The translations under genes and the position numbers were made by a program. A DNA stretch of 64,000 nt from an uncultured Acidobacterium sp. (GTDB lineage: Bacteria; Acidobacteriota; Vicinamibacteria; Vicinamibacterales; UBA2999). This document shows positions 172-60,880 of the stretch, one piece after another. A model generated the notes under the pieces. That model did not search any database, was not told the DNA's origin, and saw only the letters and a list, made by a program, of their open reading frames with translations. Each line of letters begins with the position of its first letter. Position 1 is the first letter of the stretch. The stretch spans positions 10,933-74,932 of the forward strand of contig CAZVLS010000016.1 in the NCBI GenBank assembly GCA_964628295.1, given 5' to 3'.

Positions 172-194
172 GATCCCTGATCCCTAATCCCTAA
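172..194. repeat. Heptamer tandem array gatccct-gatccct-aatccct-aa (reverse complement TTAGGGA-TTAGGGA-TCAGGGA) filling the whole spacer between the purM stop and the next minus-strand start
   Basis: Read directly. The period is 7 and the purM stop codon (191-193) lies inside the last unit. AGGGA sits 7 nt upstream of the ATG at 166. Confidence 0.8.
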
Positions 195-1216
195 ACGTAC
201 TGAACTTCCGGCTCGCCTTTAATGATGTCGCCGATCACGACGCTGTTGGCTTCACCAGCATCCAGCAGGGCCTTGCGGACGGCGTCGACATCACCCGCAG
301 CGGTCACGAGGATCATGCCGATGCCCATGTTCAGCGAGCGGCGCAGATCGTATTCGGGGACGCGGCCGGATTCTCCGAGCCAACGGAACAGCGTCGGGAC
401 GCGCCACGACGTGCGGTTGACGCGAGCGGCGGTGCCGGCCGGCAACACGCGTGGCAGGTTATCGGTGATGCCGCCGCCGGTGATGTGAGCCATGCCCTTG
501 ATCTTGCCGCCCGGCAACAGCGGCTTGATCACCGGCAGGTAAGAACGGTGAGTGCGCAGGAACGCTTCGCCAACAGTCTCGCCAAGGTCGGGCACGTGAC
601 TGTCGACAGTCAGCTTGAGTTCTTCGAACGCGATCTTGCGGGCCAGCGAATAGCCGTTGGTGTGGAGTCCGCTCGAAGGCAGGCCGATCAACACGTCGCC
701 GGGGGCGATCGCACGTCCGTCGATGATCTTCGCGCGGTCGACGGCGCCGACAATGAAGCCAGCCACGTCGTATTCACCGTCTGCATAAAAACCCGGCATC
801 TCGGCGGTCTCGCCACCGAGCAGCGCGCAGCCATTGTCCGAGCACGCGCGCGCGAGACCTTCGACGATCTGCTCGGCGATATCGGGTGACAGGCGGCCGG
901 TCGCGAGGTAGTCAAAGAAGAACAACGGCGTGGCGCCCTGGACCAGGATGTCGTTGACGCAGTGGTTCACGAGATCGGCGCCGATGGTGCGGTGCCGGTT
1001 GGTCATGAAGGCGATCTTCAGCTTGGTGCCGACGCCGTCGGCGCTCGAGACGAGGACGGGTTCCTGGTAAGCGGCGGTGTCGAGCTTGAACAAGCCGCCG
1101 AACGACCCGATGTCCGACAGTACGCCAGGAGTGAACGTGCCCTTCGCCAGCTTCTTGATGCGGCGAACGGTTTCATTGCCGGCATCGATGTCGACGCCCG
1201 AGGACTTGTAATCCAT
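191..1216 (-). CDS. purM: Phosphoribosylformylglycinamidine cyclo-ligase (AIR synthetase)
   Basis: 341-aa ORF. MDYKSSGVDIDAGN N-terminus, SADGVGTKL and GGETAEMPG motifs are typical of PurM. It lies in a pur gene cluster. Confidence 0.95.
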   Translation of the reverse strand: MDYKSSGVDIDAGNETVRRIKKLAKGTFTPGVLSDIGSFGGLFKLDTAAYQEPVLVSSADGVGTKLKIAFMTNRHRTIGADLVNHCVNDILVQGATPLFFFDYLATGRLSPDIAEQIVEGLARACSDNGCALLGGETAEMPGFYADGEYDVAGFIVGAVDRAKIIDGRAIAPGDVLIGLPSSGLHTNGYSLARKIAFEELKLTVDSHVPDLGETVGEAFLRTHRSYLPVIKPLLPGGKIKGMAHITGGGITDNLPRVLPAGTAARVNRTSWRVPTLFRWLGESGRVPEYDLRRSLNMGIGMILVTAAGDVDAVRKALLDAGEANSVVIGDIIKGEPEVQYV

Positions 1217-1251
1217 GAGATCTACCGGAACCGCCGTAGGGCCGTCGTGTC

Positions 1252-1274
1252 GGGCCGTTCCGATGGAACGGCCC
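1252..1274 (-). terminator. Perfect 10-bp stem hairpin (gggccgttcc / ggaacggccc, 3-nt loop) downstream of the HEAT-repeat gene; no U-run
   Basis: The inverted repeat was read directly. It lies in the 112-nt gap between the stop at 1329 and the purM start at 1216. Confidence 0.3.
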
Positions 1275-1328
1275 CACTTGCTGCGCAGAGGTTGCTGGTC
1301 GTGTTACGCATTCGGCCGATTCGCTTGG

Positions 1329-2567
1329 TTAGAAGTCTAGCTTGTTGATCAAGAGCTCGCAGAGTTTTCTGATCGGCGATCCGTCTGGCGCGGCCCAGTA
1401 CTCCTTGCGAATCGCGACGAAGAATCGCTCCTCTTCAAGATCTTCCTCGAGCATGTCGAACGCTTCGGCCACCAGCCCCACGGCCGCGTCCAGGTCGCTC
1501 CGGGTCTGCAATGATTTGAGGAGCAGCGGCGTGTTGCGAAGCGCGACCAGGCCGACCGCAAGGGTGACCGGGGCTCGCAATGGATCGCGCGACGGGAGGC
1601 CGACGTCGAAGAGGATCCGTAGCGCCTCGTCATTGCCCTTCTGGGCGATCTGGCCCAGGCCGGCCGACGCGCTGCGCACCAGGTCCTGGTAGCCGGGATT
1701 GGTGTCGGCGAAGGTGAGGGTTTTTTCCAGATACCCGATATGCGCCGAGCAGTTGGTGCCAAGCAGACAAATGGCCGCGGCGATCGACGGCTGGTTCTCC
1801 TTCGGCGCGGTCTGCTGCAAACCGGCAAGCGTATTCAACGACGCCTTGTCGCCGATCTTGCCAAGCGCAATCGCGGCATCGTCTTGAAGCGGTCCGTCGA
1901 TCTTCGAGATTTCTGTGAGCTTGGCCACCGACGACGCGAGCCTGTAGTCGCCGAGCGCCTCGATCACCGTGCTGCGGAAGAAATCCATGCCGCGGCCGGC
2001 GTCACGGGTCAGCGCCTCCGAGATCTTAGGAGCCTCGGGTGACTTGACGCCGCTCGCGTACGCCGCGAGCGCGCGCACGAGCGCCGGCCGCACGAACTCG
2101 CCCTCTTCCTTATCGAGTGACCTGAAGATCTTCGCCTGAAGCCGCGGCACGGGGTGGTGCTCGAAATACGCGTAGGCGACTTCGCGCAGCCGGTCGTTGG
2201 GCGAATCGAGCGTGCTTTCCATCACGTCCTCGATGCGCGGATCGGAGTATCCCGTCAGCAGGATCAGGGCGCGAAACCGGACAAAGCCATCCGCGTGTTC
2301 ATTTACGGCCTGCAACAGGGCGGGAACGGTCTGCGCCGCTGGCGCGCGCCGTATGGTTCGGCCCGCGGCCATGCGGGTCTGGTAGTCGAGATCAGCGAGC
2401 TTGTCGATCGCTGCTCTGATCTGTTCAGGAGATGCAGTCGTGGGGCCGCGCTCTTGAGCCACGGAAAGCACAGACAGGTCAGCCGCCGACGGCACAGAAA
2501 CCTCAGAGGTAAATGCAATTGCCGCGAACAGCGCGCCAAAGAACAGCTTCTGATTCATCTGTGTCAT
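1329..2567 (-). CDS. Secreted HEAT/PBS-lyase-like repeat protein (function unknown)
   Basis: 412-aa ORF with a hydrophobic N-terminus (KLFFGALFAAIAFTS). It contains recurring ~30-aa helical units (DYQTRMAAGRTIRRA, DGFVRFRALILLTGY, NDRLREVAYAYFEHH, FRSTVIEALGDY). Confidence 0.55.
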   Translation of the reverse strand: MTQMNQKLFFGALFAAIAFTSEVSVPSAADLSVLSVAQERGPTTASPEQIRAAIDKLADLDYQTRMAAGRTIRRAPAAQTVPALLQAVNEHADGFVRFRALILLTGYSDPRIEDVMESTLDSPNDRLREVAYAYFEHHPVPRLQAKIFRSLDKEEGEFVRPALVRALAAYASGVKSPEAPKISEALTRDAGRGMDFFRSTVIEALGDYRLASSVAKLTEISKIDGPLQDDAAIALGKIGDKASLNTLAGLQQTAPKENQPSIAAAICLLGTNCSAHIGYLEKTLTFADTNPGYQDLVRSASAGLGQIAQKGNDEALRILFDVGLPSRDPLRAPVTLAVGLVALRNTPLLLKSLQTRSDLDAAVGLVAEAFDMLEEDLEEERFFVAIRKEYWAAPDGSPIRKLCELLINKLDF

Positions 2568-2605
2568 CTGCCTTCTGCGGCTACTGAATCTGTGCCACCT
2601 GGGGC

Positions 2606-4054: not shown

Positions 4055-4068
4055 TCGCAGGTTCCTGG

Positions 4069-6330
4069 TTACGAGTTACTGGTTCCCGGTTGCCGTCGCA
4101 TTTTCTTCTCAATGGCCGTCGCCCACGCAGCTTCCGCATCGGCCACTGCGCTGTCGACTACGAGCTGTCCATTCACGCTCAGGCGGATGCGATCGCCGCC
4201 GACGCGTCCAATCTCGCTGACCGTGATCTCGGCGGCCTTCGCGGCCGCGATGACGGTATCAAGATGCCGGCTCGGCACCGACACCACGATGCGGGAGGCC
4301 GACTCGCCGAACAGCGTCGCGTTGATCTCGAGCGCGCTTGGCGGGTTGGCCGACGGCTGGTCCGTGACCGCGGTGACGTTGGCGGTCACGCCGAGGCCGC
4401 CGCTATCGAACGTGCATTCCGCGATCGCGATCGCGAGGCCGCCCTCGGAACAATCGTGCGCCGATTCCACGCAGCCGTCGCGAATCAGCTTGATGATCAG
4501 CGACTGGAGGGCCTTCTCGCGCTTGAGGTCGAGGACCGGCGCGCGGCCCGCGACCAGGTTGTGCATGGTGGCGAGGTATTCGCTGCCACCGATCTCGCCG
4601 AGATTATCGCCGAGCAACACCACCGCGGACCCGTCGGTCTTGAACACACGCGTCGTTGTCTTCGAGGCATCGTCCAGCAGACCGACCACGCCGAGAACCG
4701 GTGTCGGGAAGATCGCGCGACCTTCGGTTTCGTTGTAGAGGCTGACGTTGCCGCCCGTAATCGGCGCGTCCAGTGCACGGCAAGCATCGCCGATGCCGCG
4801 GACGGCCTCGCCGATCTGCCACATGATCTCGGGCCGTTCCGGATTGCCGAAGTTGAGGTTGTTGGTGGCGCCGATCGGTTCGCCGCCGGCGCACGCAACG
4901 TTGCGTGACGCTTCGGCGACCGCCAGCTTCGCGCCCTGATAAGGATCGAGATAACAGAAGCGACCGTTGCCGTCGACTGACACGGCGAGACCCCTCGTCG
5001 AGTCCTTCACGCGAACCACCGCTGCCGACATGCCGGGCTGCGCGATGGTGTTGGTGCCAACGCTGTGGTCGTACTGGCGGTAGGCCCATCGCTTGCTGGC
5101 GATGGTGGGCACCGCGATCAGCGTATCGAACGCCCGCTGGGCCGTTGGCGCGGTGCCAAGATCCGCCAGCGGCAGCTGCTGGACACGCTCCTGCCATTCC
5201 GGCACTTTCATCGGCCGGTTGTAGACCGGCGCTTCATCCGTGAGCGCGCGATTCGGCACATCGGCGACCTGCGTCCCGCGCTCCATGATCTTCAGGCGCG
5301 ATCCTTCGGTGACCTCGCCGACCTTGACCGCGTGGAGATCCCACTTGTCGAATACTGCTTCGACTTCGTGCTCGCGCCCGCGCTCGACAACCAGCAGCAT
5401 GCGCTCCTGCGACTCGGACAGCATGATCTCGTAGGGGATCATGCCGGTCTCGCGCTGCGGAACGTGCATCACGTCCACCGTCATGCCGACGCCGCCGCGC
5501 GATCCCATTTCCGATGTCGCACACGTGAAGCCCGCGGCCCCCATGTCCTGGATGCCGACGACGGCGCCCGTCTTCATGACTTCGAGACAGGCTTCCATCA
5601 ACAGCTTTTCCATGAACGGATCGCCGACCTGCACCGCAGGGCGCTTCTCCGCCGACTTCTCGTCGAACTCCGCCGACGCCATGGTCGCGCCGTGGATGCC
5701 GTCACGGCCGGTCTTGGCACCGACGTAGAACACCGGATTGCCAACGCCCTTTGCGGCGCCCTTGACGATGTCGTCCTTGCGGGCGATGCCGAGGCACAGG
5801 ACGTTGACGAGCGGGTTGCCCGAATACATCTCGTCGAACACGATCTCGCCGCCGACAGTCGGGATACCGATGCTGTTGCCGTAACCGCCAACGCCGGCGA
5901 CCACGCCTTCAAAGATGCGACGGGCCAGCGGCGTCTCGAGCGAACCGAAGCGAAGCGCGTTCAGCAGCGCGATCGGCCGGGCGCCCATCGTGAAGATGTC
6001 GCGGATGATGCCGCCCACGCCGGTCGCTGCGCCCTGGTAGGGCTCGATGAACGACGGGTGATTGTGCGACTCGATCTTGAAGACGGCACACAAGCCATCG
6101 CCGATGTCGACGGCGCCGGCGTTTTCGCCAGGACCCTGCACGACGCGCGGACCGGTGGTCGGCAGCGTCTTGAGGTGCACACGAGAGCTCTTGTAGCTGC
6201 AGTGCTCCGACCACATCACGGAGAACAAGCCGAGTTCGAGCAGGTTGGGCTCGCGGCCCATCAACTGCAGGATGCGTTCGTACTCATCCGGCTTGATGCC
6301 GTGGCGTTCAAGGACAGCGGAATCGATCAT
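4069..6330 (-). CDS. purL: Phosphoribosylformylglycinamidine synthase subunit II
   Basis: 753 aa. The [21 protein letters not shown] motif and duplicated AIRS-like halves are present. It overlaps purQ by 4 nt. Confidence 0.95.
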
Positions 6331-7058
6331 GTCAGGTTCGGAACTGCGGATTTACTGCTTGAAGAAACGCTGGCCAGCGATTTCACCACAGAGGCCAGCA
6401 CCACCCGGCCGTCAGCGCTACCGAGCTGCAGCTCCGCCGCGCGCTCGGGATGCGGCATCAGGCCGACGACATTGCGATTGCGATTGCAGATACCGGCGAT
6501 GCTGTTCAGCGAGCCGTTGGGATTCCACTCGGCGCCGACGTCTCCCGCGGCGCTGGCATAGCGGAACACCACCTGCCGGTTCGCCTCGATGTCCGCAAGC
6601 ACGTCGGGCGGCGCGTAGTAGTTGCCTTCGCCGTGCGCGATGGGCAGGCTCAACACCTGCCTGGATGCGCACGCCGCGGTAAACGGCGTGTCGGTCTGCT
6701 CGACGCGGACCGGGACCAGCTTAGAGACGAACTTGATGCGATCGTTCCTGACCATCGCCCCGGGCAACATCCCGGCCTCGAGCAGGATCTGGAAACCGTT
6801 ACAGATACCCAGCACCGGACCACCGCGCTCGGCGAACGATTTCACCGCCGCCATGATCGGCGAGAAGCGCGCAATCGCACCCGTGCGCATGTAGTCGCCG
6901 TGCGCGAAGCCGCCGGGCAGAATCACGGCGTCGGCGCTCTTCAGGTCCGTGTCCTTGTGCCAGATCAGCTCGGCCTGTTCACCGACGACGCGCGAGGCGG
7001 CGTAGAAGGCGTCGTAATCCGAGTTCGACCCTGGAAAAACGACAACAGCAAATTTCAT
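6327..7058 (-). CDS. purQ: Phosphoribosylformylglycinamidine synthase subunit I (glutaminase)
   Basis: 243 aa. Class I GATase nucleophile elbow GICNGFQ and MPHPER His/Glu motif. Confidence 0.95.
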
Positions 7059-7060
7059 TG

Positions 7061-7088
7061 TTCCCGGCTCCCGGCTCCCGGCCTCCGA
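7061..7088. repeat. Heptamer array ttcccgg-ctcccgg-ctcccgg-cctccga (reverse complement TCGGAGG-CCGGGAG-CCGGGAG-CCGGGAA) filling the purS-purQ intercistronic spacer
   Basis: Read directly. On the coding (minus) strand it places GGAGG/GGGAG/GGGAA Shine-Dalgarno-like blocks 2-23 nt upstream of the purQ ATG (7058). Confidence 0.8.
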
Positions 7089-7092: not shown

Positions 7093-7335
7093 TTACTGCA
7101 AGACCTCGACGCGGTAACTCTCGATCACCGGGTTGGCGAGCAGCTTGTCCGCCATTTCGGTCACGCGCGCCTTGGCGGTCGCGGCGTCGGTGTCGGCGAG
7201 CTCGACCTCGAAGAACTTGCCCTGGCGAACATCCTTCACGTCGTTGTAGCCGAGCGTCACCAGCGCTTCAGCGACGACATGGCCTTGTGGATCGAATACA
7301 GACGGCTTCAGGGTTACGTAAACTCGCGCCTTCAT
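7093..7335 (-). CDS. purS: Phosphoribosylformylglycinamidine synthase subunit PurS
   Basis: 80 aa. Its size and its position between purB and purQ fit PurS, as does [14 protein letters not shown]. Confidence 0.85.
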
Positions 7336-9972: not shown

Positions 9973-9996
9973 GCCAGGGCCGCAGATGACGCAGAT
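9973..9996. repeat. Copy 1 of a dispersed ~23-nt element GCCAGGGCCRCAGAWRRCRCAGA (internally 9-nt periodic on CAGA)
   Basis: gccagggccgcagatgacgcagat has 1 mismatch to the copy at 27737. It ends 19 nt upstream of the proposed SNF2 start codon. Confidence 0.8.
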
Positions 9997-12867: not shown

Positions 12868-12933
12868 GCCAGGGCCACAGATGGCGCAGAGTTCTTAGCC
12901 AGGGCCGCAGAAAGCACAGATAGCTCAGATTCA
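12868..12933. repeat. Two tandem copies (30-nt spacing) of the GCCAGGGCCRCAGA... element, filling the entire SNF2-mod intergenic spacer
   Basis: gccagggccacagatggcgcaga (12868) and gccagggccgcagaaagcacagatagctcaga (12898). CAGA recurs at 12878, 12887, 12908, 12917 and 12926 (period 9). Confidence 0.8.
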
Positions 12934-14550
12934 ATGACCAAGAAACAAAAGCTCGAGCTCACGTGGATCGGCAAGGAGCATCGTCCTCGCCTCGAGCCGC
13001 GCATCCTGCTCGAGGATCCGGCGAAGGCGTATCACGCGAAGCATCGCGTCACCGACCACGACATCTTCGACAACCGGTTGATCTTCGGCGATAACTTACT
13101 GGCGCTGAAAGCGCTCGAGCAGGAGTTCACGGGGAAGGTGAAGTGCATCTTCATCGATCCTCCGTACAACACCGGCAGTGCGTTTGAGCACTACGACGAT
13201 GGACTGGAGCATTCGATCTGGTTGTCGATGATGCGCGACAGGCTGGAGTTGCTGAGGAGGCTCCTCAGAGAAGACGGCTCGCTGTGGATAACCGTCGACG
13301 ACAACGAAGCGCACTACCTCAAAGTGGTCTGCGACGAACTCCTAGGACGCGCGAACTTTGTTGCCACTTTCGCTTGGGAGAAGGACCAGGGGCGGCGGAA
13401 CGACACTGATGTCTCCTCCGCTTACGACCACATCCTTCTCTATGCGCGGGATCGAGCGATTTGGAGAAAGACGAGAAACCTACTTCCTAGGACCGAGGAG
13501 CAGAAAAGAAGATATCGGAATCCGGACAACGATCCGCGAGGTCCTTGGTTGCAGGGCGACAATGGAACCGCAAAAAGCGGTGGCGAAAGTGCTCGGTTTG
13601 AGATCACCCTGCCTTCGGGCCGAGTAGTGGTTCCACCTAAGGGCAACTATTGGCGTTTTTCGCCGGCATCATTCGAAGAAGCACGGGCGGAAGGCCGAGT
13701 CTACTTCGGTGCTGATGGCGATGGTATGCCTCTGATCAAGCGGTATATCACCGACGTTCAAGACGGTGTCGTTCCCAGAACCTGGTGGCCTGCGAGCGAG
13801 GTTGGTTCCAACCAGGATGCTAAACGCGACCATCTGCGCAAGCTCCTTCCGGAGATCGAACCGTTTGCGACGCCGAAACCAGAAACACTAATCTCACGAA
13901 TTCTGGAGATCTCGACCGGTCCCGGAGACCTCGTGCTCGACTCTTTCGCAGGGTCGGGTACGACTGCTGCCGTGGCGCACAAGCTCGGGCGAAAGTGGAT
14001 CACGGTCGAAGTGCGCGATCACTGCCACACGCACCTCATCCCTCGACTCAAGAAGGTCGTAGACGGCGACGACCCGGGCGGCGTGACCGAATCGACTGGG
14101 TGGAAGGGGGGCGGCGGATTCCGCTACTACAAGCTCGCGCCGTCGCTGCTCGAGCGCGACAAGTGGGGCAACTGGGTGATCAACAGGGAATACAACGCCG
14201 CCATGCTCGCCGAGGCGTTGTGCAAGCTCGAGGGCTTCACCTATCAGCCGAGCGACAGCATTTCGTGGCAGCACGGCCACTCGACCGAGCGCGACTTCAT
14301 CTACGTGACCACCCAGACGCTGACCGAAGAACAGTTGCGGCAGTTGAGCGACGATGTGGGAGCGGAGCGAACGCTGCTGGTGCTGTGCACGGCGTTTCGC
14401 GGCAAGGCGGACGCGTTTGCCAATCTGACTATCAAGAAGATCCCCAAGACCGTGCTGTCGCGCTGCGAATGGGGCCGCGACGACTACTCGCTCGAGGTGC
14501 AGAACCTCGCGCCGGCGCCGCCGAAGGCCGGGCAGCAGGGACTGTTCTGA
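12934..14550 (+). CDS. mod: Type III-like DNA methyltransferase (Mod; beta-class N6-adenine/N4-cytosine MTase)
   Basis: 538 aa. Motif IV DPPY at aa 75-78 precedes the AdoMet motif I LDSFAGSGTTAAVA, with a variable middle (TRD-like) region. This is the motif order of type III Mod / N6_N4_Mtase proteins. Confidence 0.9.
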   Translation: MTKKQKLELTWIGKEHRPRLEPRILLEDPAKAYHAKHRVTDHDIFDNRLIFGDNLLALKALEQEFTGKVKCIFIDPPYNTGSAFEHYDDGLEHSIWLSMMRDRLELLRRLLREDGSLWITVDDNEAHYLKVVCDELLGRANFVATFAWEKDQGRRNDTDVSSAYDHILLYARDRAIWRKTRNLLPRTEEQKRRYRNPDNDPRGPWLQGDNGTAKSGGESARFEITLPSGRVVVPPKGNYWRFSPASFEEARAEGRVYFGADGDGMPLIKRYITDVQDGVVPRTWWPASEVGSNQDAKRDHLRKLLPEIEPFATPKPETLISRILEISTGPGDLVLDSFAGSGTTAAVAHKLGRKWITVEVRDHCHTHLIPRLKKVVDGDDPGGVTESTGWKGGGGFRYYKLAPSLLERDKWGNWVINREYNAAMLAEALCKLEGFTYQPSDSISWQHGHSTERDFIYVTTQTLTEEQLRQLSDDVGAERTLLVLCTAFRGKADAFANLTIKKIPKTVLSRCEWGRDDYSLEVQNLAPAPPKAGQQGLF

Positions 14551-14572
14551 TCAGGGACTAGGGACTAAGGAG
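14551..14572. repeat. Heptamer array tcaggga-ctaggga-ctaagga-g directly after the mod stop
   Basis: Read directly. It shares TCAGGGACT with the array at 59386 and the unit with the array at 172-194. Confidence 0.75.
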
Positions 14573-14756
14573 TTTGATCCCAGGGCTTCTGCCAGGGTTT
14601 CAGCGGCCGGCGGGCGCCGACGATCTGCACGTAAAGGTGCTGCGCCTGCACGAGTTGGCGAAGCTTTTCTTCTAACGGGGCGGCGCGGCGAGATTGCCGG
14701 AGGGCCGCTTTACCGCGTCGCAGGCGCGAGATGAGCTGCGGCGGGACATCTGCCAT
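14565..14756 (-). CDS. Possible small Arg-rich helical protein (63 aa), 3 nt downstream of the NTase gene; may be non-coding
   Basis: Track ORF MADVPPQLISRLRRGKAALRQSRRAAPLEEKLRQL... The spacing suggests translational coupling, but no recognisable domain is present. Confidence 0.3.
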   Translation of the reverse strand: MADVPPQLISRLRRGKAALRQSRRAAPLEEKLRQLVQAQHLYVQIVGARRPLKPWQKPWDQTP

Positions 14757-22212: not shown

Positions 22213-22252
22213 GGTTCCAGGGGTGCCAATGGTTCCAAGGGTTCCATGGGTT
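22213..22252. repeat. Nonamer array ggttccagg-ggtgccaat-ggttccaag-ggttccatg-ggtt spanning the rlmN/esterase junction
   Basis: Read directly. The unit GGTKCCNNN is the same type as at 28622-28696. It encodes the VPGVPMVPRVPWV n-region of the lipoprotein signal peptide. Confidence 0.7.
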
Positions 22253-23413
22253 TTGTTCTTGCCGATGCTGCTGGTTCTCGGTTGCGCGACTGAGCCGCAA
22301 TCGTGGTCGGAACTGCAGAAGCAGTTACCCGGTCTTGCCGACGCCGCGCAACGTGACGCGGCGATCGAGCAGTTCATCGCGCGCAAGGGCGGTACGCCGA
22401 TCATCGAGAACCAGACGCGGCTGATCTTCCCGGTCAAGGACAAGGACGGGCTGCAGCCGCGCGTGGTCGGCGATTTCAACGCGTGGGCCGTGACGCCGCA
22501 GGGTTACGACACGACCATCGGCACCACCACCCGCATCGAAGGATCGAGCTGGGCGTTTGTCGAGGGCAAGTCCTACACCAACGCGCGCCTCGAGTACGGA
22601 TTCCTCTACGACAAGGAATACGCCACCGATCCGCTGAATCCGCGGACGGTGCAAGCGTTTGCCGGTCCGCGGTCGGAGATCCGGATGCCGTTCTTCGTCG
22701 CGCAGCCGGAGGTCGATGAACTGGGATCGGCACCGAAGGGTGAGCTGATCGCGGAGACGTTTGTGTCGCGCTCGCTCGCCGGATCGCGACGCGTCTGGTA
22801 TTACGTGCCGCCCGGTTACGCCGCCGCCACCGATGCGTTGTATCCGGTCGTGTATGTGCTCGACGGCGCGAACTACGTCGAGAAGATGGACGTGCCGAAA
22901 GTGCTCGATCACCTGATCGCGAACAAGACGATCCCGCCGGTGATCGCGGTGTTCTCTGAACCAGCCGATCGGCAGGAGGAATACTCGCGCAGCCCAAGGT
23001 GGCGCGCGTTCATCGCGAATGAGCTGGTGCCTGCGGTCGACAAGCGATTCCGCACCTTCCCCACTCCCGATCACCGCGTGATTCTTGGCAGTTCGCTGGC
23101 CGCGTATGGGGCCGTCGACCTCGCCGTCGCCGCACCATCGGTATTCGGACTGTGCGCTGCGATGGCGCCACCGGTGCAGGCTGCCACCGTGGTCTCCAAC
23201 CAGGCCGCCGCGCGTTCGGCAGTAGTGTCGATCAAGTTCTTCGTGATGGGCGGCGTCTACGACTCGATGATCGATGGCGCGCGGCTGCTCCGCACGACGC
23301 TCGACGAGTACCAGGCGCCGGTCAGTTACCTGGAAGTGTCCGAGGGGCACAACACGAATACGTTCCGCGGGCATCTCGATGATGCCCTCAAAGCTCTCCT
23401 GCCCGCGCAGTAG
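22229..23413 (+). CDS. Putative esterase (enterochelin-esterase-like alpha/beta hydrolase) lipoprotein
   Basis: RRVWYYVPPGY...YPVVYVLDG resembles the 'putative esterase' family. Signal peptide MVPRVPWVLFLPMLLVLGC has a lipobox-like VLGC. The track ORF starts at 22136, inside rlmN; I prefer ATG 22229. Confidence 0.65.
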   Translation: MVPRVPWVLFLPMLLVLGCATEPQSWSELQKQLPGLADAAQRDAAIEQFIARKGGTPIIENQTRLIFPVKDKDGLQPRVVGDFNAWAVTPQGYDTTIGTTTRIEGSSWAFVEGKSYTNARLEYGFLYDKEYATDPLNPRTVQAFAGPRSEIRMPFFVAQPEVDELGSAPKGELIAETFVSRSLAGSRRVWYYVPPGYAAATDALYPVVYVLDGANYVEKMDVPKVLDHLIANKTIPPVIAVFSEPADRQEEYSRSPRWRAFIANELVPAVDKRFRTFPTPDHRVILGSSLAAYGAVDLAVAAPSVFGLCAAMAPPVQAATVVSNQAAARSAVVSIKFFVMGGVYDSMIDGARLLRTTLDEYQAPVSYLEVSEGHNTNTFRGHLDDALKALLPAQ

Positions 23414-24707
23414 CCAGCGCCTTCCTGCCAATGTCTCGACGGTACTGCATGCCATCGAACTTGATCTTGCTCGCCGCTTCGTACGCACGGGCGATCGCGA
23501 TCTCGTAGGACGCGGCCATCGCCATCACGGTGAGCACTCGCCCACCCGACGTCACGAGGTCGCTGCCCTTCTGCTTCACGCCGGCGAAGAAGACCTGGAC
23601 GTCGGGACAATCACGCGCGACATCATCGAGGCCGTGAATCACATCGCCGGACCGCACGTCTCCGGGATAGCCGTGCGCCGCGAGCACGACGCCGACGGCC
23701 GCTAACCGGGAGCCGGGAGCCGGGAGCGGGGCGCCGGACAGACCGGTTCCCGGTTCCCGGGTCCTGGCCGAAGCAGCGGCGAGCAGCGGCGCAAGCGGCC
23801 CGAGCAACGGCAGCACGACTTGCGCTTCGGGATCGCCGAAGCGCACGTTGAACTCGATCACCTTCGGGCCGGCGGGAGTCAGCATCAGGCCGCAATACAG
23901 AAATCCGCGAAACGGATTTCCCTCCGAAGCCATACCCTTCAGCACCGGCTGCACGATCGTCGACTCAACCTGCTGCTGCAGCACCGGTGTCAGCAAAGGG
24001 CTCGGTGAGAAGGCGCCCATGCCGCCGGTGTTCGGTCCTTCGTCATTGTCGAAGATGCGCTTGTGATCCTGCGCAGACAGCAGCGGAACGTAATGCTCGC
24101 CGTTGGCGACGACGAAGAACGAGACTTCGGGACCGGTGAGCAGTTCCTCGAGCACGACCCTCGATCCGGCGTCGCCAAAGCTCTTGTCCACCATGGCGGC
24201 GTTCACGGCGGTTTCGGCCGTGGCTCGATCCGGCGCGACCACGACCCCCTTGCCGGCGGCCAGACCGTCAGCCTTCACCACCAGTGCGTCGCCAAATTCA
24301 CCCGATCGTATGGCGTCGATGGCCTGGGCGGCCGACGTGCACACCCGGTATTTCGCGGTGGGCACGTTGTGGCGCTGCATGAAGTCTTTTGCGAACGCCT
24401 TGCTGGTTTCGAGCTGGGCGGCGGCCTTGGTTGGGCCAAACACCGGGCGGCCCTCGGCCTCGAACCGGTCCGCCAAGCCGTTGCCAAGCGGCGCTTCGGG
24501 TCCAACGACGGTCAGATCGATGCGTTCCTGGTCGACGAGCCGAATCACCGCTTCGGTGTCCAATATGTCGACGGATTTGGTGGCTATTTGGCGGCCGATG
24601 CCCGGATTGCCGGGGGCGCAAATCACGTGGCTGACGCCGGGTTCGTCGGAAAGCTTCCAAGCCAGGGCGTGCTCGCGCGCGCCGGAGCCGAGGACCAGAA
24701 TTCGCAT
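23388..24707 (-). CDS. purD: Phosphoribosylamine-glycine ligase
   Basis: 439 aa. MRILVLGSGAREHALAWKL N-terminus, ATP-grasp core, GGRVL near the C-terminus. Confidence 0.95.
   Translation of the reverse strand: MRILVLGSGAREHALAWKLSDEPGVSHVICAPGNPGIGRQIATKSVDILDTEAVIRLVDQERIDLTVVGPEAPLGNGLADRFEAEGRPVFGPTKAAAQLETSKAFAKDFMQRHNVPTAKYRVCTSAAQAIDAIRSGEFGDALVVKADGLAAGKGVVVAPDRATAETAVNAAMVDKSFGDAGSRVVLEELLTGPEVSFFVVANGEHYVPLLSAQDHKRIFDNDEGPNTGGMGAFSPSPLLTPVLQQQVESTIVQPVLKGMASEGNPFRGFLYCGLMLTPAGPKVIEFNVRFGDPEAQVVLPLLGPLAPLLAAASARTREPGTGLSGAPLPAPGSRLAAVGVVLAAHGYPGDVRSGDVIHGLDDVARDCPDVQVFFAGVKQKGSDLVTSGGRVLTVMAMAASYEIAIARAYEAASKIKFDGMQYRRDIGRKALATARAGEL
23703..23763. repeat. Inverted heptamer arrays (aaccggg-agccggg-agccggg-ag ... 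accggtt-cccggtt-cccgggtcc) inside the purD coding sequence
   Basis: Read directly. The left arm CCGGGAG units and right arm TTCCCGG units can pair. They are translated in-frame as ...TREPGTGLSGAPLPAPGSRL... Confidence 0.75.
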
Positions 24708-26470: not shown

Positions 26471-27769
26471 TTGGCACGATCCAAGGTAGCAATCGTCAAG
26501 ACGTCGCCGGCGACGGTCCGCAAGGACACGCACGCGGTGATGAACCTGGCCGGGTATCAGGACGTCCTCGCGAAGGATGCCGACACCGCGCTCAAGGTCA
26601 ACATCTCCTGGCATTTCTTCTTCCCGGGCTCGTCCACCACGCCCTGGCAGCTCGACGGCGTCATCGCCGCGATGAAGACGGATGGCTACGATCCGGATCT
26701 CATTCACGCCTGCCACAACCGCACCGTCGTCATCGACGCGCATCTCGGCGAAGCCGAGAACAAGCAGTTGCCGGTGGTCCAGGCGCACGGCCTGCGCAAC
26801 ATCCATCTCTATGAAGGCGACGAGCCGTGGATCAACGTCCGCGACGCCGTCGGCTCGGAGCTGGCCGACAAGTTCCTCTGCCTGAACGACGTCTATCCGG
26901 ACGGGTTCATGATCCCCAAGCGCTTCATCGGCGAGAACATCCTGCACCTGCCGACGGTGAAGACGCACGTGTTCACCACCACCACCGGCGCGATGAAGAA
27001 TGCGTTCGGTGGTCTGTTGAACGAGAAGCGCCACTGGACGCATCCGGTGATCCACGAGACGCTCGTCGATCTGCTGATGATCCAGAAGAAGATCCATCGC
27101 GGCGTGTTCGCGGTGATGGACGGCACGTTTGCCGGCGACGGCCCGGGGCCGCGCTGCATGGTGCCGCACGTGAAGAACGTGATGCTCGCCAGCTCCGACC
27201 AGGTCGCCATCGACGCGGTCGCGGCCAAGCTGATGGGCATGGACCCGATGTCGATCAAGTTCATCCGCATGGCCCACGACCTGGGCCTCGGGTGCGGCGA
27301 TCCGCGCGACATCGAGATCGTCGGCGATGTCGAGGCGGCGAAGGAGAACTGGCAGTTCACCGGCCCGTTCAAGAAGATGACCTTCGCCTCGAAGATGCAG
27401 CACTACATCTACTGGGGCCCGCTGAAGAAGCCGATCGAATGGTCACTGAAGACCGTGCTCGCCCCCTGGGCGTACATGGCCAGCGTCGTGTACCACGACA
27501 GCATCTGGTATCCGATGAACGCGGAGCGCAACATCAAGCGCGTGCTCGACAGCCCCTGGGGCCGGCTGTTCGAGAACTGGGAACGGCTCACCCCTGATGA
27601 AAACGGATTCCCGGACGTCGGCGAAGCGTCGGCGACCGTCACGCGTGCCGGCATGCACGCCTTCAAACAATCACTGGGCATTCTCGGCACGTGCATCAAG
27701 GAAGCACCCGAGTTCGGCCTCAGAAAGCGCCGAGTCGCCAGGGCCGCAGATGGCGCAGATCACATTTGA
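26471..27769 (+). CDS. DUF362 domain-containing protein
   Basis: 432 aa. VAIVKT...LKVNISW...LPTVKTHVFTTTTGAMKNAFGGLL matches my memory of DUF362. TTG start. The 3' end runs into repeat copy 27737. Confidence 0.7.
   Translation: MARSKVAIVKTSPATVRKDTHAVMNLAGYQDVLAKDADTALKVNISWHFFFPGSSTTPWQLDGVIAAMKTDGYDPDLIHACHNRTVVIDAHLGEAENKQLPVVQAHGLRNIHLYEGDEPWINVRDAVGSELADKFLCLNDVYPDGFMIPKRFIGENILHLPTVKTHVFTTTTGAMKNAFGGLLNEKRHWTHPVIHETLVDLLMIQKKIHRGVFAVMDGTFAGDGPGPRCMVPHVKNVMLASSDQVAIDAVAAKLMGMDPMSIKFIRMAHDLGLGCGDPRDIEIVGDVEAAKENWQFTGPFKKMTFASKMQHYIYWGPLKKPIEWSLKTVLAPWAYMASVVYHDSIWYPMNAERNIKRVLDSPWGRLFENWERLTPDENGFPDVGEASATVTRAGMHAFKQSLGILGTCIKEAPEFGLRKRRVARAADGADHI
27737..27760. repeat. Copy 4 of the dispersed GCCAGGGCCRCAGA... 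element
   Basis: gccagggccgcagatggcgcagat. It supplies the last codons (ARAADGADHI*) of the DUF362 gene and ends 25 nt upstream of the next start codon. Confidence 0.8.
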
Positions 27770-32938: not shown

Positions 32939-34177
32939 GTGAAGATCGCGTTCATCGTTCAGCGTTACGGCGCTGAGATTCTCGGCGGCTCCGAATATCA
33001 CTGCCGCCTGATCGCCGAACGCCTGGCCCTCAAGCACGACGTCGAGGTATTGACGACGTGCGCGCAGGACTACATCACCTGGGAGAACCACTATCCCGAG
33101 GGCAGCGACCGCATTCGCGGCGTGACGGTGCGCCGCTTCAAGAACTCGCGGACCCGGGACATCACGACCTTCAACCAGTACTCCGACTGGATCTTTCACC
33201 ACGAGCACACCCGTGAAGACGAGCTGTCGTGGCTCGAACAGCAGGGCCCGTGGTGCCCGCCGCTCCTCGACTACCTGCAGAAGCACCACCGTCAGTACGA
33301 CGCGTTGATCTTCTTCACGTATCTCTACGCGCCGACCGTGCTCGGCCTCGACATCGACCCGTCGCGCAGCATCCTGGTGCCGACCGCGCACAACGAGCCG
33401 GCGATCCATCTCGGGATCTACAAGGAGATGTTCAAGAAGGCCTCGGCGGTCGCATTCAACACCGAGGTCGAGAAGAACTTCCTGAAGACGACGTTCGAGT
33501 TCAAGTCGATCGCGGAAGAGACCGTGGGCTGCGGCGTCGACCTGTTGAACGACCAGGCGCAGCCGGATGATCCCGAGCCGGAGGACGAGGAAGAGATTCA
33601 CAAGCGGCTGGCGCCGCATCTGCGGGCACGCGGCGCCCAGTTCCGCCGGCGGCATCGGCTGCAGGGACAGTTTCTGCTCTACGGCGGCCGCATCGACGCC
33701 GGCAAGGGCTGCGAGGAGCTGATCGAGTACTTCACCAGCTACAAGGAGCAGGGCGGCGACGCGCAGCTCGCGCTGATGGGCGTGAAGGTCATGCAGTTGC
33801 CCGAGGTGCCGTGGGTTCGCTTTGCGGGCCTGCTCTCCGAACGCGAGCGACTGCAGGCGCTGGAGGCGGCGACGATCGTCGTGGTGCCTTCGCCGCTCGA
33901 GAGCCTGTCACTGCTGGCACTGGAAGCGATGGCGGTCGGCACGCCGGTGCTGTGCAACGCGCGCGCGGATGTACTGGTCGAGCATTGCCACAAGAGCAAC
34001 GCCGGCCTCTACTACCAGGATCGCGATGAGTTCGTCGAATGCACCAAGCTGCTGCTCGCCGACGAGCGGCTCCGCGACCGCATGGGCAGGAACGGCAAGG
34101 AATACATCAAGCGCAACTATCGCTGGGATGTGATCATGTCGAAGTACGACAAGCTCATCGGGGCGCTGCGACGATGA
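32939..34177 (+). CDS. GT4-family glycosyltransferase (type A' paralog)
   Basis: 412 aa. E-x7-E motif ESLSLLALE. N-terminus MKIAFIVQRYGAEILGGSEYH parallels the ORF at 28918. Confidence 0.8.
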   Translation: MKIAFIVQRYGAEILGGSEYHCRLIAERLALKHDVEVLTTCAQDYITWENHYPEGSDRIRGVTVRRFKNSRTRDITTFNQYSDWIFHHEHTREDELSWLEQQGPWCPPLLDYLQKHHRQYDALIFFTYLYAPTVLGLDIDPSRSILVPTAHNEPAIHLGIYKEMFKKASAVAFNTEVEKNFLKTTFEFKSIAEETVGCGVDLLNDQAQPDDPEPEDEEEIHKRLAPHLRARGAQFRRRHRLQGQFLLYGGRIDAGKGCEELIEYFTSYKEQGGDAQLALMGVKVMQLPEVPWVRFAGLLSERERLQALEAATIVVVPSPLESLSLLALEAMAVGTPVLCNARADVLVEHCHKSNAGLYYQDRDEFVECTKLLLADERLRDRMGRNGKEYIKRNYRWDVIMSKYDKLIGALRR

Positions 34178-34262
34178 AGTTTCACGTTCTAAGTTTCAAG
34201 TTTCAAGTTGAGTTTGAGTTGAGTTTGAGTTGAGTTGAGAGATTCAAGTTGAAGTTAATAGT
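34177..34262. repeat. AT-rich degenerate tandem repeat block (agtttca / agttgag / tttgag / ttgag units)
   Basis: aagtttcacgttctaagtttcaagtttcaagttgagtttgagttgagtttgagttgagttgagagattcaagttgaagtt. This is the lowest-GC stretch I saw in the window. It lies between the GT operon stop and the next start. Confidence 0.8.
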
Positions 34263-45392: not shown

Positions 45393-45646
45393 CGTGACTC
45401 CTTTACCGGGGCGCACGGCCTGGCGTTGATCGCGCCATAGCGGCGGCCGTTCTTCATTTCGTAGTTGATGTAGAGCTCACCGTCTTCCGTCCACGCCTGC
45501 TGCAGGCCTTCCTCGCGTCCGTTGTAGAAGTGACGGACTTCGAAAGGCCTGCCGCTGGCATAGAAGGTGCGCCGCTCCTCGAGGAGCGGCGTGGTCGCCG
45601 CAGGCGTCGTCGCGGCGAACATCAGCGCGATCGCCACGATCTTCAC
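45389..45646 (-). CDS. Small exported MORN/YwqK-like repeat protein
   Basis: 85 aa with a signal-like N-terminus. The repeat flavour ...HFYNGREEGLQQAWTEDGELYINYEMKNGRRYG resembles MORN-variant repeats. ATGA overlaps at both ends. Confidence 0.45.
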   Translation of the reverse strand: MKIVAIALMFAATTPAATTPLLEERRTFYASGRPFEVRHFYNGREEGLQQAWTEDGELYINYEMKNGRRYGAINARPCAPVKESR

Positions 45647-46473
45647 TGCACGGTCCCCGAGGTGCCGCGGTAGCAGCCGGAGATGTACGGCACCGCGCTG
45701 GTCGTGTGGTAATGGTAGATCCCGCTCGCGAAATCCGCGGTCACCGACGTGTGGCCGTTGCAGCCATCCAGGTTGGTCGGCGTGCTGCCATCGCTGTCGA
45801 TCGGTCCATAGACCGGGAAGCCGTCAAGCAGTACGCCGATCAGACGGCTGCGGCTCGATGCCGTGATCGACAGCGGCTCGAAGTGGTAGTGGTACTGGTT
45901 GTTCGGGTTCGGGTGACCGTTGTACCTGTCGAACGACACGATCTCGCTGGTCAGCGGCTGGCGTCCCGCCGCGTACTGGTTGTAGAAGACCACGCCATTG
46001 ACCGAGATGCCAATGGGTCCAAGCGGCGTATCGCTGGTGCTGGCCGCGGCCGCAGGAGTTGTCGAGATCCGGAATGTCAGGTTCTGCGTGGCGATCGAGT
46101 GCGGGTTCACCTGCATACCCGAATGCGGCGCCTCGTAGTTGGCACTGCTCGTTCCCCAGTACGGGCTCTTGTGATCGGGCGTGTCGCTGGTCCGGATCAC
46201 CGCGGTCGTACCGTCGAAAGTCACGGACACGCCGTTGCCGGAGAACTTCGAGAACATCGCCTGCGTGCTGGTCGTGGTTGACGTCGACGTGGTCGGCGTC
46301 GTCGGGGTCGTCGGCGCAGTCGTGGTGGTGGTGGTCGTAGTCGTGGTCGTAGCGGTGGTCGCTGTGGTCGTCGGCGCCGTGGGGCTCGACGTCGAGGCGT
46401 CCGCCTTGCTGCAGGCCATGACACCGGCGGCGATCAGGGCGATCCCGGCGGCCGCACACATGTGATGTCTCAT
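45643..46473 (-). CDS. YHYH-domain secreted protein with a poly-Thr linker
   Basis: 276 aa. QYHYHFEP and IYHYHTTS motifs. A lipoprotein-like N-terminus (IAAGVMAC) is followed by a Thr/Pro-rich low-complexity linker (about 46246-46395). Confidence 0.7.
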   Translation of the reverse strand: MRHHMCAAAGIALIAAGVMACSKADASTSSPTAPTTTATTATTTTTTTTTTTAPTTPTTPTTSTSTTTSTQAMFSKFSGNGVSVTFDGTTAVIRTSDTPDHKSPYWGTSSANYEAPHSGMQVNPHSIATQNLTFRISTTPAAAASTSDTPLGPIGISVNGVVFYNQYAAGRQPLTSEIVSFDRYNGHPNPNNQYHYHFEPLSITASSRSRLIGVLLDGFPVYGPIDSDGSTPTNLDGCNGHTSVTADFASGIYHYHTTSAVPYISGCYRGTSGTVQ

Positions 46474-56787: not shown

Positions 56788-59380
<2,593 letters not shown>

Positions 59381-59381
59381 C

Positions 59382-59414
59382 GGGCTCAGGGACTCAGGGG
59401 CTTGAGGGCTTAGC
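59382..59414. repeat. Degenerate GGG-initiated tandem units (gggctca gggactca ggggcttga gggcttagc) filling the eno-gpmA spacer
   Basis: Read directly. Shares TCAGGGACT with the array at 14551. Confidence 0.7.
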
Positions 59415-59420
59415 AAAGAC

Positions 59421-60167
59421 ATGTACAAAGTCGTCCTGCTGCGTCACGGCGAATCGACCTGGAACAAAGAGAATCGTTTCACCGGGTGGACGGACGTCAG
59501 TCTCAGCGACAAGGGCCGGGAGGAAGCGCGCGCGGCAGGGCGGCTGCTGAAGGCCGAAGGCTTCAGCTTCGACTTCGTCTACACCTCGCTGTTGAAGCGC
59601 GCGATCTGGACCAGCATCCTCGCGCTCGATGAACTCGATCAGCTCTGGTTACCCGTGGAACGCAGCTGGCGCCTGAACGAACGCCACTATGGCGCGCTGC
59701 AAGGCTTGAACAAGGCAGAGACCGCCGCGAAGCACGGCGACGACCAGGTCAAGATCTGGCGCCGCGCGTTTGCGATCGCGCCGCCACCGCTCGCTGTCGA
59801 TGATGAGCGGCATCCGGCAAGGGATCCGCGATACGCAGGCCTGCCTGCCAACGACCTGCCACTGACCGAATCACTCAAGGACACCATCGCGCGCTTCCTG
59901 CCCTACTGGCACGAATCGATCGCGCCGCGCATCCGATCGGGATCGCGCGTGATGATCGCCGCGCACGGCAACTCGCTGCGAGCGCTTGTGAAGTTCCTGG
60001 ATGGCGTCTCAGACGATGCGATCGTGGAGTTGAACATCCCGACCGGCATTCCACTGGTCTACGAACTCGACGCAGACCTCAAGCCGATCAAGAGCTACTA
60101 CCTGGGCGATCCCGAGGCCGCGAAGACGGCCGCGGCCGCCGTTGCCAAACAGGGCAAGAGCGGGTAG
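59421..60167 (+). CDS. gpmA: 2,3-bisphosphoglycerate-dependent phosphoglycerate mutase
   Basis: 248 aa. [18 protein letters not shown] (RHGE catalytic motif) and [10 protein letters not shown]. Confidence 0.95.
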
Positions 60168-60251
60168 TCCGACAGGTCCTGCTCAACCGTAGTCCGGCCC
60201 TCTGTCATCCGCCCAAGTTACAGAAAAAGCACAACTTATAGCGTTCGGGCC

Positions 60252-60280
60252 TTGACACAACCCCAAGGACTTCCTAGAAT
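60252..60280 (+). promoter_or_regulatory. Near-consensus sigma-70-type promoter TTGACA-17 nt-TAGAAT
   Basis: ttgaca (60252-60257), 17-nt spacer, tagaat (60275-60280). It would yield a ~210-nt leader before the ATG at 60498. Confidence 0.4.
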
Positions 60281-60497
60281 GGCGGCGATTTTCCCAAAAG
60301 ATTCGCCCGCCTGATGACGATTCGCGCCGATGTGCTGCCAACCGCCCGGGGGGTGCTGCATCGGCCGCTGCCGAGGGTCCCAGCCGCTTGGCGCAAATTG
60401 CCCCGCCGGAGCGGAGCAACTAGCTATTCGGGCACCTGCGAAGTGTGCCCATTCCTGTGCGCACCAGCGCGCGGGAACAAACGGAGGGAGCCGTCCT

Positions 60498-60815
60498 ATG
60501 GATGACGTCGTAAACCGGTTCGCCCGCGAGCTGGCCGACTCCATTGCCGCAGCCGTATCGGAGAGCGCGGAAGTCGAGGCGTGCCGCGAGCGAGCACGCG
60601 CCGCCGGCTACGAGATGAAAGTGAACCTCGAGGCCGTGGTCGGTTTCGTCAACCGCGGACAGCCCCAGGGCGAGAACGCGGAGACCGCCAAGGCCGCCGT
60701 GTCGAAGGCCCTTGTGCCTCGCAAGCCGTTCGAGATGACCGTTAACGATCGGCGCTTCCTCCGGTCGCTGCGCATCGCGGCCGAAGAAGCCAAAGTCGAA
60801 GAAAGTAGCCAGTAA
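60498..60815 (+). CDS. Hypothetical small protein (105 aa)
   Basis: ATG at 60498 is preceded by ggaggga (60484-60490). MDDVVNRFARELADSIAAAV... The track ORF start 60330 adds an implausible Cys/Pro/Gly-rich extension. Confidence 0.45.
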   Translation: MDDVVNRFARELADSIAAAVSESAEVEACRERARAAGYEMKVNLEAVVGFVNRGQPQGENAETAKAAVSKALVPRKPFEMTVNDRRFLRSLRIAAEEAKVEESSQ

Positions 60816-60880
60816 CCGGCAGCCGGTAGCCAGAAAAACCGGTGGCCTTTCTGGCTACCGGCTACTGGCTGCTGGCTACT
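60804..60880. repeat. Long imperfect hairpin built from opposed heptamer arrays (gtagcca-gtaaccg-gcagccg-gtagcca ... gctaccg-gctactg-gctgctg-gctacta)
   Basis: Perfect 14-bp inner stem ccggtagccagaaa (60823-60836) / tttctggctaccgg (60848-60861). Outer 9-bp stem agtagccag / ctggctact. It starts within the last codons of the upstream ORF. Confidence 0.75.

Follow-up and report, generated by a model that had tools for sequence, protein, structure and literature searches.

Heptanucleotide-class tandem arrays at gene edges in Vicinamibacterales: period spectrum, local origin of units, turnover and preserved reading frame

We analysed a 64,000-nt stretch of DNA from an uncultured Acidobacterium sp. 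of the order Vicinamibacterales (contig CAZVLS010000016.1 of assembly GCA_964628295.1). This whole stretch is called the window below. Many of its gene boundaries carry short tandem arrays of 7-nt or 9-nt units. Such arrays were over-represented and had a period spectrum dominated by 7 nt. They lay mainly at gene edges, took their units from local sequence and turned over between species while the reading frame was preserved. We read them, with a probability of roughly 0.7, as heptanucleotide-class long simple sequence repeats (SSRs) that are born and turned over by local slippage at permissive gene edges, with selection on the frame.

Genes were mapped by third-position G+C and then with a codon log-odds caller trained on long open reading frames (ORFs). 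The window has 63% G+C, and the caller gave 49 genes and 92% coding sequence. Pfam confirmed purD, rlmN, an esterase, two GT4 glycosyltransferases, a DUF362 protein, an SNF2 helicase and a DNA methylase. Evidence from the source genome comes from these 64 kb. The comparison set comprised 80 genome and 80 metagenome loci around the glycosyltransferase gene 31850-32911 (1.73 Mb, or 1.795 Mb with the window); handles such as L001 denote members of this set. Relatives of the glycosyltransferase were found in metagenome-assembled genomes at 91-95% amino-acid identity, mostly labelled Vicinamibacterales or Acidobacteriota and with synteny kept, and an exact-protein look-up gave no record. Arrays were searched with Tandem Repeats Finder (TRF) and a simple period scan, and third-order Markov simulations served as the null (~5-9 arrays per period across the data set). 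Intergenic sequence plus 45 nt at each gene end was defined as edge, which amounts to 15% of bases.

Period 7 was the dominant period: the window and the 160 loci held 92 period-7 arrays vs ~5.7 in the Markov null. The majority were at edges (70, with 22 internal; P = 6e-39 for edge concentration), and 10 of the 22 'internal' arrays really lay in long ORF tails at one junction. Period 8 was found 18 times at edges and five times internally. Periods 6, 9 and 12 sat mostly in internal coding sequence (edge and internal counts 6 and 39, 21 and 43, and 6 and 51, respectively), and periods 4, 5, 10 and 11 gave almost no arrays. After removal of two hot-spot junctions, 33 of 45 period-7 arrays were still at edges. 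Arrays began a median of 6 nt after the upstream stop and ended a median of 24 nt before the next start, and an inverted partner within 200 nt accompanied at least 28 of the 109 edge arrays. An earlier reading, made from the letters of the window without database searches (the sequence-only reading), had considered a lineage-specific mechanism and had proposed to measure enrichment at gene junctions. These counts show a lineage-wide pattern, with period 7 dominant across 160 related loci, and a concentration at gene edges.

The units were diverse, with 67 canonical units among the 92 arrays. That arrays are built from generally common heptamers was rejected, as CCGGGAA and CCGGGAG had 4-10 single copies each, near the median. 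On the sense strand, G-rich and C-rich arrays were balanced across the order (29 vs 35). The lack of a sense-strand bias fits a process at the DNA level, and a general strand-specific RNA role was dropped because of it; Shine-Dalgarno or CsrA-type GGA elements were rejected on the same counts. Self-complementary tetranucleotides in the units, which might stabilise slipped hairpins, were not enriched either (46% vs 46%).

In the window, the period scan found eight period-7 arrays and five period-9 arrays, against 0.2 expected in each case. TRF reported period 7 at 173, 7062, 14553, 23706, 23743, 31797 (CCGGGAA, 7.4 copies), 34177, 58494 and 60851, and period 9 at 12908, 22213, 28454 and 28622. 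All 15 loci named by the sequence-only reading carry short tandem units as it described them. It had placed most of them between a stop and the next start. Eleven of the 15 are at gene boundaries, corresponding to 11 of the 48 junctions in the window (about a quarter), and four are inside genes (23703, 28451, 28622 and 58484). The array directly follows the stop at 12868, 14551, 22213, 34177 and 59382, and the stop codon is within the array at 172 and 60804. Final codons of the upstream gene come from the array at 27737 (about ten, plus the TGA) and at 31797 (about 18). Three loci are weak: 9973 has only two 9-nt units, 58484 has 2.4 units, and the irregular 7-9-nt units of 59382 were reported by neither TRF nor the period scan. 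All 10 single intergenic arrays of the window were G-rich on the sense strand.

Table 1. Tandem arrays of the window, copies of the 23-nt motif and array-borne G-quadruplex motifs
Feature	Position	Strand	Context
TAGGGAT TAGGGAT CAGGGAT CTCGGG	167..194	-	Whole 24-nt spacer from TAG stop of 191..1216(-) to ATG (166); four GGG tracts
GCCGGGA x3 (sense strand)	7062..7082	-	10 nt after TAA of 7093..7335(-), 3 nt before ATG of 6327..7058(-)
23-nt motif copy CCAGGGCCGCAGATGACGCAGAT (two 9-nt units)	9974..9996	+	Divergent intergenic region; 19 nt upstream of GTG (10015), SNF2 helicase
Two 23-nt motif copies, ~six degenerate 9-nt GCRCAGANN units	12868..12930	+	Spacer from helicase TAA to DNA methylase ATG (12934)
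CAGGGAC TAGGGAC TAAGGAG	14551..14573	+	After TGA of 12934..14550; convergent intergenic region
GGTTCCAAG x4.4 (9 nt)	22213..22252	+	Between rlmN stop (22208) and esterase start (22253/22265)
CCGGGAG x4.6 (23706-23737) and CCGGTTC x3.1 (23743-23764), opposed	23706..23764		In frame within purD 23388..24707(-)
Exact 23-nt motif copy	27738..27760	+	Last ~10 codons of DUF362 gene (stop 27767-27769, TGA); 25 nt upstream of ATG 27785
CAGGGTGCA x5.9	28454..28506	+	Coding (GAQ)n, in frame, disordered tail of 27785..28921
GGTGCCNNN x4.6	28622..28662	+	Coding (GAX)n, in frame, disordered tail of 27785..28921
CCGGGAA x7.4, longest array	31797..31848	+	C-terminal tail PGTGNREPGTGNREPGTA of glycosyltransferase 30606..31853; G-quadruplex motif; ends 2 nt before ATG of next glycosyltransferase, ATGA overlap
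AAGTTTC x4.7 then AGTTGAGTTTG x2.8	34177..34239	+	Between TGA of 32939..34177 and TTG start 34249
TCCCGGC x2.4	58487..58510	+	Inside enolase gene, at loop insertion PDSGSRLP
Irregular CTCAGGGA-type units, 7-9 nt, four G tracts	59381..59413	+	Between enolase TAA (59380) and gpmA ATG (59421)
Opposed GTAGCCA GTAACCG GCAGCCG GTAGCCAG / CTGGCTA CCGGCTA CTGGCTG CTGGCTAC	60804..60880	+	Stem ~33 bp; 5' arm holds TAA (60813-60815) of upstream gene; next ATG 60892
G-quadruplex-motif arrays	167-191(-), 23708-23731, 31799-31822, 59382-59408

Two further repeats were seen in the window. A GTC-rich tract of period 3/9/18 at 46271-46361 adjoins or lies within gene 45643..46257(-), and a AGCAGGCC repeat of 8/16 nt at 30200-30238 is inside gene 28918-30603; 12 nt of the latter are absent in L003. 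The minus-strand gene that starts at 164-166, next to the first array, runs off the left end of the window and begins with a twin-arginine-like signal, MKRRQALQTLATAAAGLP (MKRRQAL start).

Comparison of orthologous junctions showed local birth, expansion and decay of arrays. The junction between the glycosyltransferase genes GT1 (30606-31853) and GT2 (31850-32911) was a hot spot. The distance from the conserved '...ALP' of GT1 to the GT2 ATG ranged from ~6 to >200 nt among relatives, and the spacer was often filled with arrays of heptamers or 9-mers whose sequence was lineage-specific, in many cases with a G-rich arm and, after it, the complementary arm. The 31797 array was missing from L001 and L081, which are the closest relatives at 95% amino-acid identity. 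It represents an insertion of 48 nt, a multiple of 3 and not of 7, and starts at a conserved CCGGAGCCGG-like sequence of the LPPEP tail. The 34177 array was likewise absent in both (an insertion of 65 nt with respect to L081), and its AAGTTnn unit shows homology to the codons with which the downstream gene begins (AAG TTA CTA GTT, K-L-L-V). At this site, the stop and start overlap or are 4 nt apart in the array-less L001, L081 and L083, and in L087 an array at the equivalent junction runs directly into the start of the downstream gene. L003 has no array at the 22213 site, where its stop and start overlap (ATGA). At the 27737 site the 9-nt unit occurs once in L001, twice in the window and three times in L003. 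The largest indels in the 8.5-kb alignments of the window, L001 and L081 were the arrays, with 48 nt, 65 nt and a single 9-nt unit, and no indel of ≥3 nt was found between L001 and L081. Clades at 80-88% identity had a common unit family with differing copy numbers. A metagenome scan for near-identical strains, in which copy-number variation might be seen, gave none above 95% amino-acid identity. The comparison with relatives that the sequence-only reading had proposed thus revealed the gain, loss and change in unit number it had asked about. The lineage-specific generating mechanism that it had offered as one explanation is not needed because the units derive from flanking unique sequence. 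The functional spacer architecture, its other explanation, is conceivable.

The length of the arrays was constrained by the reading frame. Expanded GT1 tails (spacer >60 nt, window included) were found at 50 junctions, and 31 of them had no upstream in-frame stop. Of these 31, 28 ended at a stop overlapping the GT2 start (ATGA and similar), three were gene fusions and none was in the third frame, although one third would be expected per class (P = 6e-11 for 28 of 31). This distribution indicates selection on the total length, i.e. on the frame and the stop/start overlap, and not on the repeat sequence. The total lengths remain in frame, which preserves the stop/start overlap. In L070, L071 and L131, the two glycosyltransferase ORFs read as one fused ORF across the arrays, as there is no stop before the GT2 frame.

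These observations suggest the following course of events. Arrays would originate during replication, when slipped-strand mispairing occurs on short quasi-repeats that the local sequence already contains, mostly with a unit of 7 nt and less often of 8-9 nt. They would persist only where a change in length is tolerated: in intercistronic spacers, in dispensable C-terminal tails and sometimes in surface loops of enzymes, the last with a total that is a multiple of three. Once started, the units may mutate and re-expand, and the closest relatives may have no array at all. Mutation followed by re-expansion would give a junction similar units in related species, in numbers that differ. In the case of inverted pairs, the arms are probably kept complementary by intrastrand template switching, possibly aided by selection, which would produce long stem-loops. 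Four or more G tracts are found in a G-rich subset (GGGANNN), as in the quadruplex-forming repeats of Xanthomonas and Nostoc. We infer both slippage and template switching from the patterns described, and likewise that the arrays have no dedicated function.

Arrays inside genes were of two sorts. The 28451 and 28622 loci code for tripeptide repeats of an ordinary kind in a disordered tail, and the (GAQ)n array at 28454 differs from L001 by exactly one 9-nt unit. The gene in question (27785-28921) encodes a conserved N-terminal domain (~215 aa) that matched nothing in Pfam, and then the disordered tail, which contains (GAQ)n, (GAX)n and a GRRRRRRRRGRRGG stretch. The gene is the first of an exopolysaccharide-like glycosyltransferase cluster reaching ~36486. 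The other intragenic arrays are in housekeeping genes, as in-frame heptamer insertions in surface loops of the enzymes. The purD arrays lie in a variable loop between GARS_A and GARS_C, which exceeds that of solved PurD structures by 7-9 residues, and the TTCCCGG unit of the second array is the reverse complement of CCGGGAA. L006 has another heptamer array (CCCCGAT x4) at the same place in purD, where its contig ends. The enolase array at 58487 corresponds to the loop insertion, which is absent from solved enolases (8 residues compared with the best-matching structure and 6 compared with the second).

The GCRCAGRNN family, which the sequence-only reading had listed as a 9-nt tandem family, was only partly upheld. 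Units of 9 nt are present at its loci, but they belong to copies of a dispersed 23-nt motif, CCAGGGCCGCAGATGGCGCAGAT. The window has four copies with 0-3 mismatches vs 0 expected, all four on the + strand and ending 13-25 nt upstream of a start codon. In L004 and L006, related copies precede other genes, likewise in the sense orientation, and a GCAGAT core recurred at a period of 7, 8 or 9 nt, depending on the genome. In the window, the motif precedes an SNF2/ResIII helicase gene and the N6/N4 DNA methylase gene that follows it (10015-14550); the two may form a restriction- or defence-type pair.

Two opposed arrays had been read as hairpins. This was confirmed for 60804-60880, the strongest inverted repeat of the window, with a predicted free energy (dG) of -58.4 kcal/mol and a z-score of -11.5 for its ~33-bp stem. 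The purD pair is indeed opposed, but its folding was not significant (z -1.6). Single arrays folded no better than shuffled sequence. Among 49 expanded spacers of the GT1>GT2 junction, 14 (about 30%) had z < -3, and the median z was -1.6. Hairpins are accordingly common at this junction but not the rule, and a function of the strong ones at expanded junctions is possible. In L084, the same junction (~3870-4003) is occupied by a near-perfect palindrome of ~134 nt (dG -134.6 kcal/mol, z -19) at the place that carries heptamer arrays in other genomes. Intrinsic terminators were considered and rejected: no T-run follows the 60804-60880 stem, and terminator-like sites were not enriched near 55-64 kb. 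G-quadruplex (G4) motifs (G3+N1-7 x4) were found five times in the window vs 0.3 expected, and four of the five are arrays (Table 1). The only one that is not a tandem array is at 47720-47748 (-). A search of the window with Rfam 15 at the gathering threshold gave no matches.

Several points weigh against an origin by local slippage. Slippage alone leaves the preference for 7 over 5, 8, 10 and 11 unexplained, and units with GGG or CCC were about twice as frequent as among intergenic heptamers (40% vs 21%, P = 3e-5). The CCGGGAR unit occurs at four independent sites in 64 kb (7062, purD, 31797 and enolase), two of which are housekeeping genes. The 23-nt motif at three junctions, always on the sense strand, is not readily explained by independent local seeding. 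Complementary arms are kept within clades while the unit differs between clades, which could reflect structural selection. Two properties of the material also count here: the gene caller was home-made, so that stops are exact and starts approximate, and all 160 loci are syntenic around one gene, meaning that hot-spot junctions were sampled repeatedly and the set is not an unbiased genome sample. A different explanation is that selection maintains the arrays, above all the inverted pairs, as cis-acting structures of RNA or DNA (stem-loops, G-quadruplexes) at operon junctions. These might set transcript 3' ends or stability, or downstream translation might require ribosomes to unwind the structure as they complete the upstream ORF. 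The stability of the 60804-60880 hairpin, the well-folded minority of GT1>GT2 spacers, the complementarity of the arms, the excess of G4 motifs and the fact that the upstream ORF is usually open through the structure to the ATGA overlap all argue for it, as do reports that similar repeats are transcribed and fold into G4 structures in vitro (Rehm et al. 2015, PMC4692102). However, most arrays are single and fold like shuffled sequence, the closest relatives have intact genes without arrays at the same junctions, and G-rich arrays show no sense/antisense bias across the order. Moreover, the hairpin lacks a T-run, and template switching can keep arms complementary without selection. We therefore regard selected structures as unlikely. 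A more specific proposal was that inverted heptamer pairs at operon junctions of Vicinamibacterales are hairpins crossed by ribosomes, which would form a tunable switch. GT1/GT2 (30606-32911) would be the best example, with an upstream ORF that stays open through both arms and stops on the start codon of the next gene. Upstream translation would have to unwind the hairpin for the downstream cistron to be translated, and the recurrence of CCGGGAR and of the 23-nt GCAGAT motif would point to a dedicated process of recognition or spreading. Taken as a whole, we consider this proposal doubtful and quite improbable.

A sequence-specific spreading process, or retention as binding sites, might also apply to some of the families. 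The 23-nt motif and the CCGGGAR arrays could be small dispersed elements or recognition sites of a DNA- or RNA-binding protein, with the tandem form serving multimeric binding. The number, orientation and position of the motif copies agree with this, as do its relatives in L004 and L006, the varying period of the GCAGAT core, and the four CCGGGAR sites, given that this heptamer is not common as a single copy. On the other hand, the 9-nt unit at 27737 is ancestral, and its numbers of one, two and three among relatives are those predicted by local expansion. The CCGGGAR sites may share a seed: the ancestral GT1 tail contains CCG GAG CCG, and relatives have a conserved SPEP/SDEP in the protein sequence of the PurD loop, so a common Pro-Glu-Pro seed is a possible reason for the recurrence. 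No flanking target duplications and no associated transposase were seen, the downstream genes have no functional link, and the basis of the count is 64 kb of the source genome. Dispersed elements or binding sites are hence very unlikely in our view. The weakness of the loci 9973, 59382 and 58484 speaks for chance, a composition artefact of GC-rich sequence or an assembly artefact. These explanations have a negligible probability: the Markov null gives 0.2 arrays per window vs eight observed, and the pattern recurs in 160 independently assembled loci, long-read assemblies included. Local slippage with selection on the frame remains the explanation that we favour.

With these results, a major and mostly uncultured soil lineage (Acidobacteriota, Vicinamibacterales) can be added to those bacteria in which heptameric tandem repeats are known to abound. 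The syntenic set follows the birth of arrays from quasi-repeats at stop/start overlaps into C-terminal tails and even enzyme loops, and their turnover between species, during which selection keeps the reading frame and the stop/start overlap. The data also bear on the question of 7 nt as the favoured unit length in unrelated phyla. In practice, arrays lengthen or shift predicted gene ends and starts, which affects annotation. Assembly is concerned as well, since several metagenome-assembled genomes have arrays at contig ends (true contig ends at L006 34-65, L008 26-102 and L119 1-19). This suggests that the arrays break short-read assemblies, possibly due to copy-number variation within populations. 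Such a hint of heterogeneity would recall phase-variable contingency SSRs, in which units are reversibly gained or lost and the adjacent gene is thereby switched. If the hairpins were indeed crossed by ribosomes, the gain or loss of a 7-nt unit would shift the frame, and expression of the exopolysaccharide genes would be under a heritable, tunable switch.

Heptanucleotide repeats are already known from other bacteria. According to the accounts of Mrázek et al. (2007) in PMC4679880 and PMC4692102, they are the most abundant class of long SSRs with 5-11-nt units (LSSR5-11) in many bacteria, and a link was proposed to a general tendency for expansion through polymerase slippage. That the preference for 7 nt is due to polymerase contacts is a published hypothesis only. 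The arrays described here resemble LSSR5-11, as far as these accounts go, in that 7-nt units are the most abundant, that units which are not a multiple of 3 are excluded from coding sequence, and that the hosts are free-living bacteria with large genomes. Head-to-tail units longer than expected by chance, non-multiple-of-3 units outside coding sequence, and variation in copy number or presence between genomes were all found in our data. In contrast, Acidobacteria (four genera, without Vicinamibacterales) had a median heptamer-repeat score of 0 in a 2014 survey (PMC4060949), whereas the Vicinamibacterales loci were rich in such repeats. A 2025 cross-kingdom survey of short tandem repeats (PMC12699852) has no mention of heptamers or Acidobacteria, and no paper on Vicinamibacterales repeats was found in our literature search.

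A close similarity is to the G-rich GGGANTN arrays of Xanthomonas, of which ~185 per genome were described, 89-93% intergenic and 7-11% intragenic (Rehm et al. 2015, PMC4692102). These are mostly located between aligned ORFs at a mean of 28 nt from the upstream ORF, with a preference for four units. Each genome has 70-75 cases of array pairs in convergent (inverted) orientation, and array lengths differ in sister species. Transcription of such repeats and their G4 folding in vitro were also reported in that study. Like the GGGAATC/GGGANTN repeats of Xanthomonas and the GGGGA(C/T)T repeats of Nostoc PCC 7120, arrays of the window have 7-nt units starting with GGGA (GGGAACC, GGGAGCC, GGGATTA, GGGACTA). 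Shared with these repeats are further the number of 2-7 units, an intergenic location (~90% there), mostly between co-oriented ORFs and close to the upstream stop, frequent inverted pairs, arrays with four G tracts, occasional intragenic copies, and differences in length and sequence between related species. There are also differences. Our arrays are from Acidobacteriota and have no dominant unit, neither order-wide nor in the window with its several families. Units of 8 and 9 nt occur too, position 6 is usually C and not T, and the G4 potential is a prediction from sequence. With respect to the GGGANTN consensus, conserved at positions 1-4 and 6, GGGATTA (172) fits, GGGAACC, GGGAGCC and GGGACTA keep GGGA with C or T/A at position 6, and AAGTTTC, CTGGCTA and GGTTCCAAG do not fit. 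Many arrays are not G-rich at all (AAGTTTC, CTGGCTA, AATTCCT).

Tandem heptamers between genes, often few nt from a start codon, are also known as short tandemly repeated repetitive (STRR) sequences in heterocystous cyanobacteria and as TAACTGA repeats. Mazel et al. reportedly described the cyanobacterial STRR units CCCCAGT, TTGGTCA and CAACAGT in 1990. The TAACTGA arrays of Beggiatoaceae are located just upstream of start codons, with one inside purC (MacGregor 2015, PMC4679880). As in our data, some of these repeats are at gene ends or inside genes, and strain-specific gain and loss was seen there. Unlike the many units here, those genomes have one or three fixed units, and none of the STRR and TAACTGA units was among our TRF consensus units or in the array catalogue. 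Repetitive extragenic palindromic sequences (REPs) and bacterial interspersed mosaic elements (BIMEs) are likewise extragenic, at 3' ends and between cistrons, and capable of forming stem-loops. However, REPs are imperfect palindromes of 20-40 nt in near-identical dispersed copies, while the stems here are formed from tandem 7-nt units. The only long inverted repeat built from arrays (60795-60889) had no second copy in the window or the loci, all other arrays being direct repeats, and Rfam gave no match. The sequence-only reading was hence right to set the arrays apart from REP/BIME, and also from CRISPR, as contiguous units of 7-9 nt differ from repeats of ~23-50 nt with unique spacers. Its view that they are an undescribed class is not supported: placement, inverted pairs, GGGA units, four-G-tract arrays and turnover match heptanucleotide long SSRs. 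The match to a catalogued family, which it had named as the finding that would count against it, is one of class and does not extend to any catalogued unit sequence. No new kind of genetic system is revealed. Given the score of 0 for Acidobacteria in 2014 and the lack of a paper on this order, the repeats are of a kind already known, in a lineage that appears newly documented as rich in them.

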